A program made the translations under genes and the position numbers. 64,000 bases of DNA from Candidatus Altiarchaeota archaeon (GTDB lineage Archaea > Altiarchaeota > Altiarchaeia > IMC4 > SCGC-AAA252-I15), in the NCBI GenBank assembly GCA_043800705.1, contig JAZDMS010000010.1, positions 32,001 to 96,000 on the forward strand, read 5' to 3'. The stretch's first letter is position 1; every line of letters begins with the position of its first letter. The notes beneath the pieces were generated by a model. It did no database searches. It was given only the letters and a program-made list of their open reading frames with translations, and was not told the DNA's origin. Below, one piece after another: positions 17,801 to 45,367 of this stretch.

Positions 17801-17811
17801 TTGATAATAAT

Positions 17812-17990
17812 AATGGGCCCGCCCGGATTCTTGAAAAAGCCTTCGGCTTTTTACATCCAGGCGGGTGCGTGAGACGAGACGCCAGTGGGAAGATAAGAAA
17901 TGGGCCCGCCCGGATTTTTCCAAAAAAGCGCCTCGCGCTTTTTACATCCGTGCGGGTTCGCGAGACGAATTCGCTTCGGAAAGATACTAA
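17812..17990 (-). repeat. Two 87-90 bp tandem units, each ending in a copy of the tRNA-Val 3' end
   Basis: TGGGCCCGCCCGGATT (each preceded by AA) at 17814, 17901 and 17991; units share the AAAAAGC..GCTTTTT hairpin, ACATCC, GCGGGT and GAGACGA. Confidence 0.9.
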
Positions 17991-18065
17991 TGGGCCCGCC
18001 CGGATTTGAACCGGGGACCTCCGCCATGTCAAGGCGACGTCATAGCCGGACTAGACCACGAGCCC
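17991..18065 (-). tRNA. tRNA-Val(GAC), CCA not encoded
   Basis: GGGCTCG TGGTCTAGTCCGGCTATGAC, anticodon arm TCGCC-TTGACAT-GGCGG, GGTTCAAATCC, CGGGCCCA. Confidence 0.95.
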
Positions 18066-38441: not shown

Positions 38442-38525
38442 CGCGCAGAGGGCTACCCCCTCATTTTTTTGGATTGTAGGCCCCCCTTTTTTTAGCGAGT
38501 TTCGTCGTAAGGCAGCTCCAACCTT

Positions 38526-38650
38526 TCGGATAACATTGGGATTAAGCGAAGTCTGCGGAAGGACTGTCTATTCCTGACGTTTGCGCAGATTTGGGGCGCA
38601 GAGCACCCGACAAGGGTCCGAATGCGCCCGCTTAATCCCGCGTTATCCGA
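38526..38650. repeat. attC-like site A
   Basis: TCGGATAAC-ATTGGGATTAAGCG ... CGCTTAATCCCGC-GTTATCCGA with two internal hairpins. Confidence 0.85.
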
Positions 38651-38697
38651 CCGAGCCCGACAAGGGCGAGGCTTGAGTTTTCGAACTGCCCCTATAC

Positions 38698-39075
38698 TTA
38701 GATAGTTATCTTTTTTTCGATTTTAATATTTTCTCCAGCGTGAGTCTTGATGATGGTATTGAATTCATCTAAATCTTTTGTTATAAGATTTGTCCGCATA
38801 TATGCAACTTGACTGCTTTCTCTTGTTAACTTCAAATCATATGGTCTCATTCCCCCATTAGATAAAAAGACACTACGAAGGATTTCTATTTTATCAAAAT
38901 CTTTCCACGCATAGAATTTATCTGGTTTGATACAATGAATTCCAGTAGAATAAACTTTAAAATATGGTTCAAACGGTTCAAAAATAAAGTTTGTTTGTAA
39001 TAACACTCTAAGTATGTTGTGCTTCTTAGGTTTATCTTCATAGACTAAACTGCCACGTTCTTTTACATCTATCAT
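38698..39075 (-). CDS. Cassette gene: hypothetical 125-aa protein
   Basis: AT-rich ORF filling the A-B cassette. Confidence 0.7.
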   Translation of the reverse strand: MIDVKERGSLVYEDKPKKHNILRVLLQTNFIFEPFEPYFKVYSTGIHCIKPDKFYAWKDFDKIEILRSVFLSNGGMRPYDLKLTRESSQVAYMRTNLITKDLDEFNTIIKTHAGENIKIEKKITI

Positions 39076-39126: not shown

Positions 39127-40331
39127 ATACTATGTAGGGTTCTTGCCTTTTGCCGTGTAATGCGGCTAAAGGAGGAGTATTAAGGAGTATTATGGAGAAC
39201 CCTACGGTTTATCTTGGATGTGATGCGCATAAAAAAGAGTGCGTTTTCTGCGGTTTGAATGAGGAAGGCAACCGTGTTTGGGAGGGTAAAACGCCCACAT
39301 GTTTGGCGGGATTCGAGTTTGTCAAAGGCAAACTCGAAGGCTATATTGTCAAAGTCGTGGTTGAGGCGGGAGGTTTCGTGTGGAAGATTACGGACTTATT
39401 CTCGGAGGTCGGTTTCCAGGTGTACGTGTGCAACCCCTCAAAGAATCCCCAGATCGGTTTGAGCAGGAAGAAAACCGATAAAGAAGATGCATTTAAGTTA
39501 GCTGATCTGCTTCGGGCGGGGTATTTGAAATGCATCTATATCCCCACGAAAGAGCAGAGGGAGTTGCGGTCTGTAAGCAGGGACAGGCATAGTCTTGGTC
39601 GATTGCGGGGTAGGCTGTTGACTCAGGCACGCACTGCATCGTATGAGCATCAGATAGAACGTCGCAAAAGGATCATTGAATGCGTAGATGATGAAATCAA
39701 GAGTCTGAAAAAAGAAATAACAGCGAATGCCGGGAAAAATCCGAGCATTCGGCTTTTAGACTCAACTCCTGGAATAGCGGAGTACGGGGCTAACCTAATC
39801 GTTGGGGAAATATGCACTATAGACCGGTTCCCCACCTGCAAACAGTACATCGCCTACTGTGGGCTGGTGCCGTCGGTACGTCAGTCGGGGAATACCTTGC
39901 ATCTGGGTGCGATAAGGAAGGATTCCAATCACCGGTTGAAGTGGGTGTATACCCAGTCTGCTTGGATAGCGGTAAGGTGGAATCAGGAACTCAGAAGATT
40001 ATACGATCGGAAAGCTCGGGAGAGGGGGAAGAAGAAGGCGATTATTGTTGTGGCGAAGAAACTCGCCACAAGGAACTATTGGATGCTCAAAGAAAACAAA
40101 ACATACCAGGAACTGGTAGCCGCTTTTATCCGAATAGGCTAATCAAGCCTTACAGATTGTTTGCGGATCAGATCCCTGGACGGATCAGTACAGTAGGCTA
40201 ACCAAGCCTGAATGGTTGAATGTCGGAAGACGACTCACAAAGTACTGACCACGAAAAAAGAAACAAGTAAAATTCTGGAAGGTCTTATTATAGCGGCAGC
40301 CCTATACACATACCAGGCAAGAACCCACATG
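39127..40331 (+). mobile_element. IS110/IS1111-family insertion sequence 1, abutting attC-like site B
   Basis: Subterminal IR GGGTTCTTGCCT (39137-48) and AGGCAAGAACCC (40315-26); about 170 bp 3' non-coding end; ends uncertain by a few bp (core TG or AT). Confidence 0.85.
39192..40142 (+). CDS. IS110-family transposase (bridge recombinase)
   Basis: DEDD RuvC-like residues LGCDAHK, VVEAG, KTDKEDA; YCGLVP..RQSG catalytic serine region. Confidence 0.93.
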   Translation: MENPTVYLGCDAHKKECVFCGLNEEGNRVWEGKTPTCLAGFEFVKGKLEGYIVKVVVEAGGFVWKITDLFSEVGFQVYVCNPSKNPQIGLSRKKTDKEDAFKLADLLRAGYLKCIYIPTKEQRELRSVSRDRHSLGRLRGRLLTQARTASYEHQIERRKRIIECVDDEIKSLKKEITANAGKNPSIRLLDSTPGIAEYGANLIVGEICTIDRFPTCKQYIAYCGLVPSVRQSGNTLHLGAIRKDSNHRLKWVYTQSAWIAVRWNQELRRLYDRKARERGKKKAIIVVAKKLATRNYWMLKENKTYQELVAAFIRIG

Positions 40332-40334
40332 GTT

Positions 40335-40456
40335 TCGGATAACATGGCAGGTAACCGAAGTTCGCCGAAGAAACGTCGCCAGACTGACAATTGGGCGAAT
40401 TTGGGGAACCACGGACCCGCAGGCAGAGAATTCCCGCTTAGCCGTACGTTATACGA
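40335..40456. repeat. attC-like site B
   Basis: TCGGATAAC..GGTAACCGAAGT ... ATTTGGGG ... CGCTTAGCCGTAC-GTTATACGA. Confidence 0.82.
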
Positions 40457-40517
40457 GGCGAACCGCAGTGAGCCCGAGCCCCTGAAAGGGGCGAGCGTGC
40501 CTGCCAAGTTTTTTTTG

Positions 40518-40988
40518 TTATTGTTTTAGTTTGATATACCCTTCAATTAGTCTTAGGACTTTTACTTCTCCTTCCCTGTTTAGTGGTTTTTGGACGTATT
40601 CATTTGCGCCAATTCTAGGTCTCTCTTCATCTGACGGTAGTCTACCTGACAACATTATTACTACCTGGTCACCGTTGGATGTTTTCTTTATATCTGGAAT
40701 AACAGTATCCCCAGACATTCCTGGCATTTCTCTATCACACACTACAACATCATACTTCTTTGGGGAGTACTTTTCAAGACCATCCATACCGTTAGCGGCT
40801 AAATCAACATCCCAACCTTGTCGCACCATAATCATTTGGAGTCGATCACGCAATATCTCATCATCATCTATTAAAAGAATCTTTGGTTTACTCACTCTGG
40901 CACTTAAATGTGGTTGGAGTTGACGCACCTCTCCTAAGCTTATCTTATCTGCTAAAGGATTTCTGGTTGAAATATGCTGCGTGACCAT
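40518..40988 (-). CDS. Cassette gene: stand-alone response regulator receiver (CheY-like)
   Basis: ILLIDDD, AANG, VVCDREMPGMSG, MLSG, QKP. Confidence 0.88.
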   Translation of the reverse strand: MVTQHISTRNPLADKISLGEVRQLQPHLSARVSKPKILLIDDDEILRDRLQMIMVRQGWDVDLAANGMDGLEKYSPKKYDVVVCDREMPGMSGDTVIPDIKKTSNGDQVVIMLSGRLPSDEERPRIGANEYVQKPLNREGEVKVLRLIEGYIKLKQ

Positions 40989-41214
40989 GTTATTAGATAT
41001 AATAATGAAAACTATTTAACTTGGCAGGCATGTCGTATAACATCGCGGGTAAGCGAAGTTCCCGCGATGGACTGCCTCTGACCCACTTTTGGCGGGAATT
41101 TGGGGCGCCGCGTACCCGGCAAGGGATCACGAACGCCCGCTTAGCCGCATTCCTTAGAACTTTTTCTTTTGGCTGTGTGTTTACATTTTATTAGTCCTCT
41201 ATCTTATTAATCTT

Positions 41215-41364
41215 TTGAGGGCATGGGGCTGTTCCACAATCGTTCCTCGGCGCTCACTGGGCGCAATTTGGTAAGTGGTAAACGGAGCCCCCAATCACGT
41301 TACAGAAGCTTCAGCCTCGGGTGAGGTTGGCTTAGCGGCTAAACGGGGGTGCCCGTGCCCTCAA
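41215..41364 (-). ncRNA. Predicted bridge/seek RNA of IS element 2
   Basis: Closing stem TTGAGGGCA/TGCCCTCAA; two internal loops whose strands match the target (CGTTTAGCCGC, TAACGTG) and the donor junction (TACCA, AGGAACG). Confidence 0.78.
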
Positions 41365-41386
41365 CTGAAGTAAAGAACTTAATCTT

Positions 41387-42376
41387 TTATGCCACCTCCC
41401 TGTATGGTTCCTGGTTGGTGAGCATGTGCCAGATGATGGTCGCCATTTTCCGGGCGGTGCTTCTTCTGGCGGTTTGCATGCCTTTTCTTTTTTGGATTTT
41501 GTAGTAGTGTTTCATGAATCTTGTGTCGATTGTTGCAGCTTTCCCGGAGGATTCGTAGAGTATCCATTTGAGCCATTTGTTGACTGCGTGTTTTTCTACG
41601 GTGTGTTCTTTGCTGCCGGATTGGTAGATTCCGGGGCATAGTCCGCAGTAGCTGATGAGGTGTTGGGGTGTTTTGAATCGTTTTATGTCTCCGATTTCCG
41701 CCAGGATGAACAGGGCTGAGTATTCAGCTACTCCGGGCAGGCTCATCAGCAAACTTGTTTGATGGTTGCTGCGGCTTATTTTTTCTATCCGGTTTTTGGC
41801 TTCTTGTTCTTCGGCGTGTACGGTGTCGTAGACGTTCAGGAGGTTGGTGGTGTTCTGGTCCTGGTTTTGTTTTTTGAAGGCTGTTAGCATCTTTTTTGTC
41901 CAGAGGTTTTTGGGGCAGGTTTGACCTTCCCGAATGAGATTCGTCTTTATTTTGGTTTTTACCTGTGTTTGTATCCTGGTTATGCTGCTTTTGTGTCTGC
42001 ATAGGTCTCGTAGTTTCTGTGTTTCTTCGCCGGGTATGTAGACTTCGGGCAGGTAGTTGGTTCGCAGCAGGTCTGCGAGTATTTTGGCGTCGCCCCAGTC
42101 TGTTTTTTTGTTTGCGGCAAGTTGGTGTGTTTTTAGGGGATTAGCTAGTTTGACTGTGTATCCGAGTGTTGTTAGGTTTCTGTATGCTGGTCGCCACATT
42201 CCGCAGGCTTCTACGGCTACTGTCAGATGGGTGTTAGGTATCCCTGTCACGAACCGTTCAACAGCGTCTTTTCTGGCGGGGAATTCATTCTCCCGAACGA
42301 CTTTTCCCCTGGCATCCATGATGCACCCGGTGTACTTTTCCTTGTGTATGTCCAACCCGCAAAACAACTGATCCAT
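41387..42376 (-). CDS. IS110-family transposase (bridge recombinase)
   Basis: CGLDIHK, AVEACG, KTDWGDA, YCGLCP..YQSG; SD GGAGGTGA before ATG 42376. Confidence 0.93.
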   Translation of the reverse strand: MDQLFCGLDIHKEKYTGCIMDARGKVVRENEFPARKDAVERFVTGIPNTHLTVAVEACGMWRPAYRNLTTLGYTVKLANPLKTHQLAANKKTDWGDAKILADLLRTNYLPEVYIPGEETQKLRDLCRHKSSITRIQTQVKTKIKTNLIREGQTCPKNLWTKKMLTAFKKQNQDQNTTNLLNVYDTVHAEEQEAKNRIEKISRSNHQTSLLMSLPGVAEYSALFILAEIGDIKRFKTPQHLISYCGLCPGIYQSGSKEHTVEKHAVNKWLKWILYESSGKAATIDTRFMKHYYKIQKRKGMQTARRSTARKMATIIWHMLTNQEPYREVA

Positions 42377-42506
42377 ATTTTTCACCTCCCCGGGGCTTAT
42401 AGACGGTAATAAGCCCCATAATAAACTATTTGCCTAAAGAAAAAGTTCTACTACCATCACGTTATGCGCCCCTGGGCGACAAGCCCAGGGTTCGAAGCCC
42501 AAAATA

Positions 42507-43121
42507 TTATTCTGTAAAAGAATGATTCAAGATATAGTCAGCTGGCAATACTTTCGACTCATCTTCATTATACCAGAAGCACTGTTTTTGTTTGCTATAG
42601 AAAGAGCTATTCATGTTGCAGCATATATTACAGCAAACATAGGAGTGATCAGGGATTTTAGTGACATAAAACTTTTTGAAGGTGTCATATCCGTCTTTTT
42701 CAAATTCACCAAAGAAACCCGTTACGTTAAACGGTTTAGCTCCGAAATACACTAATTTGCTGGTTTCCCTAGTCAGGCAGTTATCTGTTTTCATGTCCCA
42801 GAGGATGACGTCGTTATCCGCAAATGTGCAACTTTTGAATTTCGACTTTCTTGCTACTGCTGTTATATTCTCAATTCCAGCAGAAATTGTTTCAGTCCTA
42901 TTCGATATCCTTATAGGATACTCTTCAGAGGGTTCACAATTGAAGATATACCATCCATGGTAGTCGATAACTTTAGGGATCAAAGATAAATTCACTTGAA
43001 TAGTACTTGTAGAAATTGAGGATAATCTATGTGTCGTTGAAGTAATTCCTTGATTTGTGTCCGAACCAATACACCCACAAAAGAGTAATACCAGGGTTAA
43101 TGAAGGCAATATTTGATTCAC
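42507..43121 (-). CDS. Cassette gene: predicted lipoprotein/secreted Cys-containing protein
   Basis: Hydrophobic N-terminus ending LLFCGC, followed by a Ser/Thr-rich linker. Confidence 0.7.
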   Translation of the reverse strand: MNQILPSLTLVLLFCGCIGSDTNQGITSTTHRLSSISTSTIQVNLSLIPKVIDYHGWYIFNCEPSEEYPIRISNRTETISAGIENITAVARKSKFKSCTFADNDVILWDMKTDNCLTRETSKLVYFGAKPFNVTGFFGEFEKDGYDTFKKFYVTKIPDHSYVCCNICCNMNSSFYSKQKQCFWYNEDESKVLPADYILNHSFTE

Positions 43122-43201
43122 ATTTATCTATACATCCTCTAGCAATAAAATCGTTTGGGTCGTTTGGGCTTCGAAAGTCAGTTCGCCGCAGCGAGCCGAT
43201 T

Positions 43202-43328
43202 GCGCATAACATTGGGGCTAAACGAAGTCCGCCGAGGAAACGCCGCCAGAGTGACTTTTGGGCGGATTTGGGCAACCACGTACCCCGACAAGGGGCAGAG
43301 AATTGCCGTTTAGCCCTGCGTTATCCGA
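43202..43328. repeat. attC-like site D
   Basis: GCGCATAAC-ATTGGGGCTAAACGAAGT ... CGTTTAGCCCTGC-GTTATCCGA. Confidence 0.85.
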
Positions 43329-43401
43329 CCGAGCCCGGCAAGGGCGAGGCAAGCCCCTCCAAAAGGAGGGGCGTAGAGTCGCGGAGGGGCAATAGTTCTT
43401 A

Positions 43402-44289
43402 TTATTCCCTTAGCCGTAATCTTTTTTGATTTGTCTCGATTAATCTCAATCTTCTTTTTATTCGAGTCTGAGGTATTTGATTTCTTAGGAATATCATACC
43501 CTCATCAGTCAGTCTCCCAGCTTCTCTCTCACTAGGTTCTTGTAGATATCCCCGTCGTAAATATTCCTCTTCTGTCTCAATAATTTCTTTTTTAGTTTTT
43601 AGGGGTGGTTTTTGGACTGATAATACTATCACTCCATCAATACCGTATCCATCCATAAAATCAATGAGAGCAAGCTCATACGTACTATATAAACGTAATC
43701 CCCGAAAGGTCGATGCTGTATCTGTTAATGACTCCATATAAGGATTTTCTCTCCATCTTTGACAAAAGTAATTTTTACTTAATTTAAATAATCTCCAATA
43801 ATCTTTAATTCTTTTTTCATCTCTATCCAAAATTCTACTTTTTAGATGTTCATTTATAACAACACTATAATAGATCGGACTGATTACGGCAAGGGCAGAA
43901 TGAATTAATTCGTGTTCTAAGCTGTTTGTTTCATGTACTAGCTTTTCTGGCCCTTTGGAGTAAGGATAATCCGCCACACTGATAAGGTTATGGGTGAGAG
44001 AATAGCGTCCACCAACACTTTTCTTGTGTTTTATTGAAATCTGTAATGGTAATAACTCTTCAATAGGCACTTCCCAGATTTGTGATATTCGTTGAAATAA
44101 ACTTCTAACTATTGGAGTCATGTTTTCCAATCTAAACTTTCCACCCTCCTCCGGAACAATCAATAAACCATATGTCCTATCAGTCAATGAACGAGTATCA
44201 TACCCTTCCCAAATCTTTGGAAAAGAATCATTAAATCTTTGGTGAAATTCTTCAACCCGTTGGTCCTTATTTTTTTTCTTAATGTGCAT
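43402..44289 (-). CDS. Cassette gene: hypothetical protein with HExxH (HELIH) zincin-like motif
   Basis: GGRYS..NLISV..LEHELIH; ATG 44289 lies about 30 nt after a TATATA box. Confidence 0.7.
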   Translation of the reverse strand: MHIKKKNKDQRVEEFHQRFNDSFPKIWEGYDTRSLTDRTYGLLIVPEEGGKFRLENMTPIVRSLFQRISQIWEVPIEELLPLQISIKHKKSVGGRYSLTHNLISVADYPYSKGPEKLVHETNSLEHELIHSALAVISPIYYSVVINEHLKSRILDRDEKRIKDYWRLFKLSKNYFCQRWRENPYMESLTDTASTFRGLRLYSTYELALIDFMDGYGIDGVIVLSVQKPPLKTKKEIIETEEEYLRRGYLQEPSEREAGRLTDEGMIFLRNQIPQTRIKRRLRLIETNQKRLRLRE

Positions 44290-44340
44290 ACACACCAATA
44301 AGATATCTGAACAATGACTATATATTGCCCCTCCGTGATT

Positions 44341-44412
44341 TCGGATAACACCGATTACCCGCAATTGTTGCGGGTAATCGCTCTTTTGGGCTGGTTACCC
44401 GCAGTTATGGGC
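44341..44412. other. Atypical terminal recombination site E (short attC-like or attI-like)
   Basis: TCGGATAAC, perfect hairpin CGATTACCCGCAA-TTG-TTGCGGGTAATCG, third TTACCCGCA copy, GTTATGGGC. Confidence 0.55.
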
Positions 44413-44710: not shown

Positions 44711-45367
44711 TCAGTCTTCGTCTGTGCAGCAGCATTTTCTGCTGTGTTCGCTGCAGGGGCCTTTGGTGAGCGGCATCTGTATGTCTGGGGAGGTGCAGTT
44801 GTAGTTGGTGCAGTAGAATATGCCGTATCCTTCGTCGTCGCAGGCAAAGTCGCATTCGTTCAGGTATTTGGTTATGCAGCGGCCGTATTCGCACCTTTCA
44901 TAGATGTCGCAGGCTAATACGGCTGTGTTCTTCGGCTTGCCGAGGCAGTAGCTGTCCGGGTGGCCGCGGTTCACGCACGTATACGTCGTCGAGTAGTTCC
45001 ATATCGTGTTCCCCTTGCATTTGAGTTCCGATACGACTAATCCGCCGCAGTCCGCTTCGGAATTGCAGCGTTTGCCTTTGAGGGTCGTGGTCGTAGTGGA
45101 TGACGTGGTCTCTGATGACGATGTAGTGGTCGTGGATTCTGTCGATGTCGTCGTCGAGGTGGTAGTGGTGGACGACGTGGTGGTCGTGATGGTGGATGAT
45201 GTGGTCGTGGTCGTCGACGAAGTCGGCAGGACAATGTACCATACGCTGTTGAGGACGGCTTCGGCTGAATTCACGAATAGGGCCGAGGGGATTAAAAGCA
45301 GCAGAACGAGCATTATGCCCATTATTGCGACGAGGGCCGTCATGACGGCCTCTTCCTTGGCGACCAT
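44711..45367 (-). CDS. Membrane-anchored Thr-rich, Cys-rich surface protein
   Basis: N-terminal TM, poly-Thr/Ser stalk, Cys-rich C-terminus. Confidence 0.7.
   Translation of the reverse strand: MVAKEEAVMTALVAIMGIMLVLLLLIPSALFVNSAEAVLNSVWYIVLPTSSTTTTTSSTITTTTSSTTTTSTTTSTESTTTTSSSETTSSTTTTTLKGKRCNSEADCGGLVVSELKCKGNTIWNYSTTYTCVNRGHPDSYCLGKPKNTAVLACDIYERCEYGRCITKYLNECDFACDDEGYGIFYCTNYNCTSPDIQMPLTKGPCSEHSRKCCCTDED

Follow-up and report, generated by a model that had tools for sequence, protein, structure and literature searches.

How does an insertion sequence (IS) in an archaeal genome come to lie at one exact position inside a repeat that resembles the recombination site of an integron cassette? 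The question is raised by a 64,000-nucleotide stretch of contig JAZDMS010000010.1, assigned to a Candidatus Altiarchaeota archaeon and here called the window, which holds four copies of a ~140-nt attC-like repeat (sites A, B, C and D), with site C split by an IS. A preliminary description, made from the letters alone, had read the IS as an archaeal IS1111-type element whose non-coding end encodes an RNA guide programmed against attC. The element carries an IS110-family recombinase gene and a conserved structured RNA, and across its relatives both loops of that RNA vary together with the DNA they read. It is very probably an IS1111-type member of the IS110 family, encoding a DEDD/serine 'bridge' recombinase that transposes under RNA guidance. 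Such targeting by IS110 and IS1111 elements has been known since 2024 and the mechanism is not new here.

The boundaries of the element were set by aligning the occupied site C against the intact sites A, B and D, and two sediment metagenome contigs (X4) contain an uninterrupted homologous site that departs from the window sequence exactly after 41149 and continues CGTTAAAC..., with further metagenome records, having different site bodies, diverging at 41133, 41137 and 42465. On the + strand the flanks read CGCTTAGCCG-CA / IS / CA-CGTTATG. Read in the sense of the IS, the left junction is ...GCGCATAACG(42460)-TG(42459-58)-ATGGTAG(42457...), with a longer left flank ...GGGGCGCATAACG ending at the same base, and the right junction is TAAGGAA(41150)-TG(41149-48)-CGGCTAAGCG(41147...), where the right flank continues as CGGCTAAGCGGGCG... 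after the second TG. The circle junction predicted from these ends is CTACCAT-CA-TTCCT (+ strand); the split of site C, the target and the junction had all been described earlier, with strings and coordinates that are exact to the base. A 7-nt left extension, ATGGTAG (42457-42451), precedes the left subterminal inverted repeat, a 5-nt right extension, AGGAA (41154-41150), follows the right one, and the two repeats match perfectly (15/15 bp, 42450-42436 and 41169-41155). The left-end motif was found again in related loci.

The protein family is clear. The open reading frame (ORF) is intact, and its product carries both domains by which the IS110 family is recognized, PF01548 DEDD_Tnp_IS110 (81.8 bits, 6e-23) and PF02371 Transposase_20 (70.5 bits, 1.6e-19), scores 220.8 bits against NCBIfam NF033542 'IS110 family RNA-guided transposase' (cut-off 140), and matches the PDB sequences of ISCro4 (9t56, E 7.9e-13) and IS621 (8wt6, E 1.4e-11). 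Residues D9, E56, D93, D96 and S242, numbered on this protein, are invariant or nearly so in 30 aligned homologues, and every residue invariant across that set is retained. The protein had been called compact, a label that does not hold, as its length is ordinary for the family and the solved IS621 chain has 328 aa. The IS1111-type assignment of the preliminary description is borne out by these matches together with the layout: a 3′ non-coding region of 237 nt (41386-41150) against 81 nt at the 5′ side (42457-42377), a subterminal repeat within the ~7-17 bp typical of IS1111 elements, and an RNA in which the top-strand match lies 5′ of the bottom-strand match, the order that passages of Siddiquee et al. 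(PMC11187229) give for IS1111 seekRNAs.

Protein searches returned at least 880 homologues, mostly 55-62% identical. Thirty loci were taken from genomes, mostly of Thermoplasmatota and other archaeal metagenome-assembled genomes (MAGs) with a few bacterial ones, and 80 more from metagenomes; the genome-contig relatives were retrieved with an alignment query, a single-protein query having given none. At least 5000 plasmid records matched, all of them in the under-60% identity band, and identity to the transposase does not exceed 32.6% in the best-ranked plasmid-borne IS110-family genes. The window element and two metagenome loci, L035 and L037, form a long-branched, fully supported clade in the tree, with 91-93% identity inside it and at most about 62% to the remaining family. 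Within L037 (1100-1700), the right end is interrupted just after ...AAAAGAAAAAG by another IS110-family gene, which reads as a nested insertion at or near the subterminal repeat.

In passages of two 2024 studies (Durrant et al., PMC11208160; Siddiquee et al., PMC11187229), the bridge or seekRNA is placed in the right end of IS1111 elements, and the former predicts bridge RNAs in the right end of 93% of them. The corresponding region of the window element has a minimum-free-energy fold (41364-41215) with an outer stem, a CCCCC/GGGGG stem, a CCAC/GUGG stem and a GCGC hairpin, that is, the closing stem and two internal loops proposed in the preliminary description. The RNA is present in 77 related loci by nhmmer search. 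In an alignment of 67 distinct sequences (A2), the stems and loop 2 are nearly invariant and the two strands of loop 1 are the sole hypervariable stretches. A 26-pair structure placed on this alignment has 97.2% of its cells paired, and 11 of the 26 pairs show compensatory change (47 cells), mostly in the inner hairpin of loop 1 and the hairpin of loop 2. None of 500 shuffles reached the observed values, and controls with one strand slid along the other were 25-57% paired.

All four guide strings of the earlier reading, CGUUUAGCCGC, UAACGUG, UACCA (41273-41269) and AGGAACG, were verified in this RNA, and they follow one rule common to both loops: the 5′ strand complements the DNA right of a core dinucleotide, and the 3′ strand repeats the DNA left of the core together with the core itself. 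Loop 1 reads the target and loop 2 the joined ends of the element, each on both sides of the core, as in a bridge RNA. Loop strands were taken by anchored patterns in 73 of 114 sources. The loop-1 5′ strand, reverse-complemented, was set against the 8 nt after the right-junction dinucleotide in 36 distinct guide and flank pairs from 59 loci; cognate pairs matched at a mean of 5.92 of 8 positions and non-cognate pairs at 2.70. When each of the 30 distinct guides was represented once, 0 of 20000 permutations gave a mean as high as the observed one. For the 3′ strand, the 6 nt preceding the left-junction dinucleotide were used, in 53 distinct pairs (cognate 3.38/6, non-cognate 1.71/6; 45 guides, 0 of 20000 permutations). 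In L124, a locus added once the analysis was complete, the loop-1 5′ strand agrees, as its reverse complement, with the right flank at 7 of 9 positions.

Loop 2 was compared with element ends defined independently of it, the right end being located from the reverse complement of the left subterminal repeat. In 48 of 61 loci its 3′ strand agrees at all seven positions with the 7 nt that follow the right repeat, and each of the five variants of this strand (AGGAATG, AGAGGTG, AGGGATG, AGAGATG and AGGAGTG) is matched by its own ends. The remaining mismatches lie mostly at the two core positions, so that natural relatives carry core mismatches too. On the other strand of loop 2, UUACCA occurs solely with ATGGTAG (6/6), UUGCCA accompanies ATGGCAG in 31 loci and ATGGTAG in 17 (a G-T wobble), and other variants occur in ten loci, nine of which mismatch at the variable position. 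RNA guidance, as claimed in the preliminary description, is thus seen as covariation of guide with target and of guide with donor across relatives; two outcomes named there as contradicting it were unrelated targets with unchanged loops and a lack of covariation, and for both the opposite was found.

A protein that recognizes the hairpin of the attC-like repeat directly, with the matches between the 3′ end and the flanks being incidental or captured from the target, is a highly improbable alternative. For this copy alone the short matches are not very improbable: in 64 kb, an 11-mer with at most one mismatch is expected 1.32 times and was found four times (site B, the L′ arm of site C at 41045-41055, the site C target half, and the guide itself), and chance matches of such short strings within a single window are not negligible. 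There is also a likeness between the L box of the repeat and the inner hairpin of loop 1 (CUAAGCC). Set against this, the correspondence of guide and own flank extends over 30 distinct 5′ and 45 distinct 3′ guides, including targets that are not attC-like, and the CUAGGC/CUAAGC hairpin is conserved in all family members, whatever their target. According to the abstract and passages of Siddiquee et al. (PMC11187229), four IS1111 members and one IS110 member also depend on their seekRNA, which can be reprogrammed.

Targets of the family other than attC-like sites include a tRNA-like 3′ end and other palindromic repeats. One large clade (L007, L009, L014, L064-L067, L069, L073, L076, L080-L082, L086, L087, L089 and L106) has the guide (A)GAUUUGAA at a site ...GG-TG/TTCAAATCCCTTCCCCTGCAC that resembles part of a tRNA gene, the T-loop with the 3′ acceptor half, and its left flank shows no likeness to the rest of a tRNA. 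The guide AAAGACCCG is found at CTTT(T/C)CATC-TG/CGGGTCTTACGC, within a conserved palindromic repeat of ~60 nt (CTGCGGGTCT...AGACCNCGCAG), in L005, L040-L046, L090 and L100; since these loci comprise one clade and a second, unrelated branch of the tree, guide exchange or convergence is suggested. The window's own genome contains an orphan right end on contig C4 (62395-62596; L003), where the bridge RNA gene is intact, the transposase missing and loop 1 different, GAGTTAAG; its target-loop strands are GAGUUAAG and CUGAAGU, and the matching flank is TG-CTTAACC. Stand-alone guides of this kind recall the solo ssr9 copies of ISPpu9 described in the abstract of PMC12288879.

With RNA guidance as the preferred reading, transposition of the window element would proceed as follows. 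An RNA of ~150 nt would arise from the 3′ non-coding end, probably by co-transcription with the transposase gene or by processing of its transcript. The 5′ strand of either loop would pair with DNA right of the central YG, and the 3′ strand would repeat the sequence to the left plus the YG. Loop 1 would read the target ATAACG-TG-CGGCTAAGC, the R″/L″ spacer at the 5′ end of the attC-like repeat, and loop 2 the joined ends ...AGGAA-YG-ATGGTAG..., the circle junction. The complex of recombinase and RNA would then unite the excised circle with the target and exchange strands at the dinucleotide, leading to insertion in one orientation, sense to the cassette genes, with the attC-like hairpin split. 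We infer that the RNA is made, that it binds the recombinase and that this copy is still mobile.

Features of the insertion sequence and of the attC-like sites in the window (window coordinates)
Feature	Position	Strand	Basis or remark
Whole insertion sequence	41148..42457	minus	1310 bp with one copy of the TG core counted
Transposase/recombinase gene, 329 aa	41387..42376	minus	ATG at 42376, preceded by GGAGGTGA
Candidate bridge/seek RNA gene	41215..41364	minus	3′ non-coding end; ~150 nt, two internal loops
Target loop, 5′ strand CGUUUAGCCGC	41335..41345	minus	Complementary to right half-target G-CGGCTAAGCG, 10/11
Target loop, 3′ strand UAACGUG	41296..41302	minus	Identical to left half-target plus core TAACG-TG; pairs with bottom strand
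Donor loop, 5′ strand UUACCA	41269..41274	minus	Complementary to left-end bases 2-7 (TGGTAG), one G-U pair
Donor loop, 3′ strand AGGAACG	41241..41247	minus	Right end plus core AGGAA-TG, 6/7; mismatch is the first core base
Left subterminal inverted repeat TAGAACTTTTTCTTT	42436..42450	minus	Direct sequence reading
Right subterminal inverted repeat AAAGAAAAAGTTCTA	41155..41169	minus	Direct sequence reading
attC-like site A, intact	38517..38659	minus	nhmmer profile of sites A-D
attC-like site B, intact	40327..40464	minus	Central dinucleotide TA versus TG in IS sense
attC-like site C, larger part (L″ to R′)	41022..41147 (41026-41149 as a repeat copy)	minus	nhmmer profile 7.7e-31; arm comparison
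attC-like site C, R″ part (...GCGCATAACG)	42460..42475	minus	Sequence, profile, arm comparison
attC-like site D, intact	43195..43337	minus	nhmmer profile of sites A-D

Close relatives have used the same site repeatedly. Five independent left junctions, in the window, at the end of contig C21, in two copies of L035 and in L036, read [A/T]TAACG-TG-ATGGTAG, which answers affirmatively the question, raised in the preliminary description, of whether other copies sit at the same attC position. Right junctions read TG-CGGCTAAGCGGGCG in the window, CG-TGGCTAAACGGGCG in L035 and CG-CGGCTAGACTGGG in a right-end stub on contig C37 of the same genome. The metagenome contig L035 (1-1985) contains two relative copies in successive attC-like sites with an intact site between them, all three in one orientation and the copies placed relative to their sites as in the window. 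The end of C21 is another occupied attC-like site, and a right-end stub of ~50 nt (C37:3734-3783; L004/L116) lies in the last attC-like site of its contig as a terminal 'footprint'. Site B, with CGCTTAGCCGTACGTTA at 40435-40451, differs from the reconstructed target by a single base, as described beforehand, and that base falls in the central dinucleotide; in IS621 the core must match, and if the same applies here, the TA core of site B would explain why it is empty. Whether other clades with ...TG/TTA(T) junctions also occupy attC-like sites was examined with a narrow four-sequence profile, which scored only the window site among the reconstituted empty sites and, on whole loci, only L035 and the loci of the window's own genome.

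Several observations weigh against an active, typical IS1111 element guided by this RNA. On its own sequence the RNA folds weakly (z-score -1.82; 10 of 200 shuffles fold as well), and support for it therefore comes from the comparison with relatives. Each of the copy's two guides contains one mismatch (10/11 in the target 5′ strand, 6/7 in the donor 3′ strand, at the core). Across the family the 3′ strand of loop 1 fits less well than the 5′ strand, with apparent one-base register shifts in some loci; in L010 neither loop-1 strand matches the flanks by eye, the right flank fits poorly in L015, L063 and L070, and L068, L088 and L093 show one common 'flank' under different guides; their right ends were probably mis-called, and they were kept in the counts. 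No sequencing run of RNA was found among the runs listed, and the best DNA run contains 0.11 of the sampled words. The extensions of IS1111 elements are 'usually' 7 bp left and 3 bp right of the repeats according to passages of PMC11187229; the left one here is 7 nt, and the right one, at 5 nt plus the 2-bp core, departs from the classical 3 nt throughout the family (61 loci). This departure is treated as subfamily variation that does not exclude the element from the IS1111 group. The assembly holds one full copy; a second one, at the end of C21, matches it at 81% identity over 142 nt, so that recent transposition in this genome is not demonstrated.

The last of these observations suit the view that the window copy is a fossil, RNA-guided on arrival and no longer mobile, and we regard this as doubtful, though a serious alternative. 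Besides the two guide mismatches and the lack of a second near-identical copy, it draws on the degenerate relics in the same genome, the C37 stub and the transposase-less right end on C4. Against it, the 329-aa ORF with all its invariant positions, the perfect repeat, both complete ends and all stems of the RNA are intact. Related natural copies are likewise mismatched at the core position, and the right-end dinucleotide CG of L035 and the C37 relic matches the donor guide AGGAACG exactly, which explains the single donor mismatch of the window copy.

In the orientation of the cassettes, the first half of the attC-like repeat reads CG(G/T/C)ATAAC, a 2-nt spacer, GG(G/C)(A/C)TAA(G/A)CG and a variable centre, and the second half an imperfectly complementary L box, then 3 nt of spacer and GTTAT(C/A/G)CG. 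Each arm has an R box of 8 bp and an L box of 10-11 bp, set apart by a 2/3-nt spacer, and R″ and R′ are 114-119 nt apart. The insertion point falls in the R″/L″ spacer (R″ is ATAAC, L″ is GGCTAAGCG), at the site's 5′ end. This arrangement of boxes is the architecture of attC sites, which have AAC/GTT boxes, imperfect L″/L′ repeats, a variable centre and lengths of 57-141 nt. As single-stranded DNA, site A folds well (-37 kcal/mol, z -6.6), and sites B and D fold less convincingly; Rfam gave no match. The four sites stand within 4.8 kb on contig C35, each after a short ORF, the layout of a cluster of attC sites lacking integron-integrases (CALIN; at least two sites less than 4 kb apart). The ORFs (38698-39075, 40518-40988, 42507-43121 and 43402-44364) all run on the minus strand, with a site directly downstream of each, and encode proteins of 125, 156, 204 and 320 aa, one with a receiver domain and the others without a family; the transposase gene is sense to all four. 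The start of contig C37 contains two more sites and the one occupied by the stub, beside a thermosome gene. The array island has a GC content of 0.41-0.48 versus 0.54-0.62 on either side.

That the element is RNA-guided and its target a palindrome after short genes, like repetitive extragenic palindromic (REP) sequences or miniature inverted-repeat transposable elements (MITEs), with no relation to integron attC, is an unlikely reading that would make it comparable to the REP-targeting IS1111 members ISPa11 and ISPpu9 in place of the attC-targeting ones. In its favour, no integron integrase was found in the assembly: the sole tyrosine recombinase (PF00589, contig C17) is XerA-like and lies below both cut-offs (XerA 172.5, cut-off 220; integron integrase 168.2 in two stretches, cut-off 265), and TIGR02249 integron integrase scored above its cut-off in none of the 49 genomes searched in the order. 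Absence of an integrase from the genome is not proven, since the assembly is 87.55% complete. The repeat had no plasmid match and occurs in this genome only among the 49 of the order, and the full RYYYAAC/GTTRRRY consensus is absent, the boxes reading GGATAAC and GTTATCC with just the AAC/GTT triplets in agreement. Against it stand the architecture of the repeat, with an AAC/GTT R box, an asymmetric spacer, an L box and a variable centre, the arrays on C35 and C37 together with the single site at the end of C21, and, within a low-GC island on C35, the position of every site directly 3′ of a short ORF on the same strand whose function is unrelated or unknown. Moreover, according to passages of PMC9668308, most reported archaeal integrons are CALINs without an integrase. 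The architecture and array layout favour the earlier identification of the target as attC; it is not proven, no IntI having been found in the genome or in the 49 searched, and the sites are called attC-like here for that reason, the name resting on repeat architecture and array layout. On this evidence they are probably true attC sites.

Further features surround the array. A G+C-rich hairpin, CCCTGGGC-TTGT-CGCCCAGGG, lies directly upstream of R″ in site C (42476-42500) and at C21 (~150-175), and sites A and D have GCCC-TTGT-CGGGC at the corresponding place; with this hairpin next to R″, the repeat unit extends beyond the attC-like core. The array is bordered by a 218-aa ORF (44711-45367, minus) that encodes a long Ser/Thr run followed by a Cys-rich domain and has weak NCBIfam matches only. 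A second IS1111-type element (39130-40329, plus strand), unrelated to the first, has a transposase 30% identical to that of the first. Its subterminal repeat, GGGTTCTTGCC, measures 11 bp, and its extensions are of the classical lengths, 7 nt on the left and 3 nt on the right; relative to the cassettes it is antisense, and 6 nt separate its right end from the R′ box of site B (GTTATCCGAAACCA/IS). No relatives of it were found in 61 genomes of the phylum or among the fetched loci, and no guide was readable in its 3′ end from exact matches of at least 6 nt.

The host contig is archaeal, as the preliminary description had said, and probably belongs to Altiarchaeota. The genome contains an Archaea_SRP (signal recognition particle) RNA at 132 bits, above the gathering score, and a full archaeal small-subunit (SSU) rRNA at 1421 bits, with a TFIIB gene on the window's own 211-kb contig and the thermosome gene alongside the array on C37; the methionyl-tRNA synthetase (MetRS) encoded in the window is closest to proteins of Altiarchaeota MAGs, with up to 73% identity among the named matches. 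The IS family was found in 2 of 61 phylum genomes searched and the array is compositionally foreign, which makes lateral acquisition of the island probable. Elsewhere in the window (17807-18006) three direct repeats stand at ~90 nt spacing (ATAATAATGGGCCCGCCCGGATT...), the last of them overlapping one end of a tRNA-Val gene (17991-18065, minus) and the first two each followed by a second repeated block (families D15 and D20); these may be duplicated attachment sites at a tRNA end.

Among known systems, the IS1111 seekRNA elements (ISEc11, ISPa11, ISKpn4 and ISPst6) are the closest in layout. Like them, the window element combines a PF01548 and PF02371 DEDD transposase with a long non-coding region downstream of tnp, subterminal inverted repeats, a top-strand match 5′ of the bottom-strand match in the RNA, and site-specific, often palindromic targets, with guides naturally reprogrammed between close relatives. 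It differs in its archaeal host, in its distance from the best-ranked plasmid-borne transposases, and in an RNA to which no Rfam family corresponds. Unlike the 82-96-nt 'peak' seekRNA of IS1111, that RNA has a conserved donor loop covarying with the ends, in which it is more like the two-loop RNA of IS621. With IS621 and ISCro4 (8wt6, 9t56) the element shares its family by sequence, a bispecific two-loop guide with the donor read through the joined ends, and loops that read both strands on either side of a core dinucleotide. Unlike in those elements, the RNA lies in the right end and not the left, with the strand order of the loops reversed, as published for IS1111 versus IS110. Long subterminal repeats and a TG/CG core are further differences, the core of IS621 being CT.

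The bacterial IS1111-attC group (ISPa21, ISPst6, ISKpn4 and ISPa25) offers the nearest biological parallel, with site-specific insertion near the 5′ end of cassette sites and several copies that may fill successive sites of one array, as in L035. A degenerate right-end footprint occurs here at the last array site on C37, and such footprints are, reportedly after Tetu and Holmes, typical of the bacterial group. Passages of PMC3001079 describe the bacterial group as monophyletic and antisense to cassette transcription; the transposase gene here is sense to the cassette ORFs. ISKpn4 and ISPst6 are the bacterial attC-targeting members with which Siddiquee et al. worked, in passages of PMC11187229. 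Because of its sense orientation, its low identity to plasmid IS110 genes, its right extension of 5 nt plus core and its well-defined donor loop, the window element is not filed in that group, and it is probably a convergent analogue of it, not a relative. The evidence leans a little towards attC targeting having arisen independently of the bacterial group, through reprogramming of loop 1 within a sediment-wide, mostly archaeal two-loop family: the family has at least 30 distinct target guides and includes tRNA-like and palindromic targets, and the element has the same target and insertion point as the bacterial group, yet the opposite orientation and a probably unrelated protein lineage.

The array itself resembles the archaeal integrons and CALINs described in passages of PMC9668308, with same-orientation short ORFs, imperfect palindromes of ~120 nt with AAC/GTT boxes and, as in most of the archaeal cases reported there, no integrase nearby. 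Archaeal IS110 recombinases and archaeal integrons are both already on record in the parts of the literature covered. The words 'transposase', 'insertion sequence' and 'IS110' are absent from the main text of PMC9668308, so IS targeting of archaeal attC is not described in that main text; its Data S1-S3 may list this genome or phylum. No archaeal attC-targeting IS was found in titles and abstracts or in passages of PMC9668308, PMC11213020, PMC11187229, PMC11208160 and PMC3001079, and PMC12444791 names IS1111 solely in its reference list.

The family provides a natural series of 36 pairs of 5′ guide and flank, 53 pairs of 3′ guide and flank and five donor variants, allowing the rules by which an IS1111-type two-loop bridge RNA pairs to be derived without experiments, and its 329-aa recombinases with ~150-nt guides are candidates for programmable recombinases. 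The footprint of the IS is independent, circumstantial evidence that attC-like repeats form a distinct and recognizable class of DNA in Archaea. RNA-guided attack on cassette sites, hitherto associated with integrons of Pseudomonas and enterobacteria, would extend to an archaeal host, probably of the Altiarchaeota, and the use of the same 5′ end of the site suggests convergent evolution. A bolder, speculative version is that the complex of recombinase and RNA sometimes rearranges cassettes through pairs of attC-like sites in a lineage lacking an integrase. If attC targeting did arise independently here through reprogramming of loop 1, archaeal cassette arrays would be parasitized by RNA-guided elements just as bacterial integrons are.

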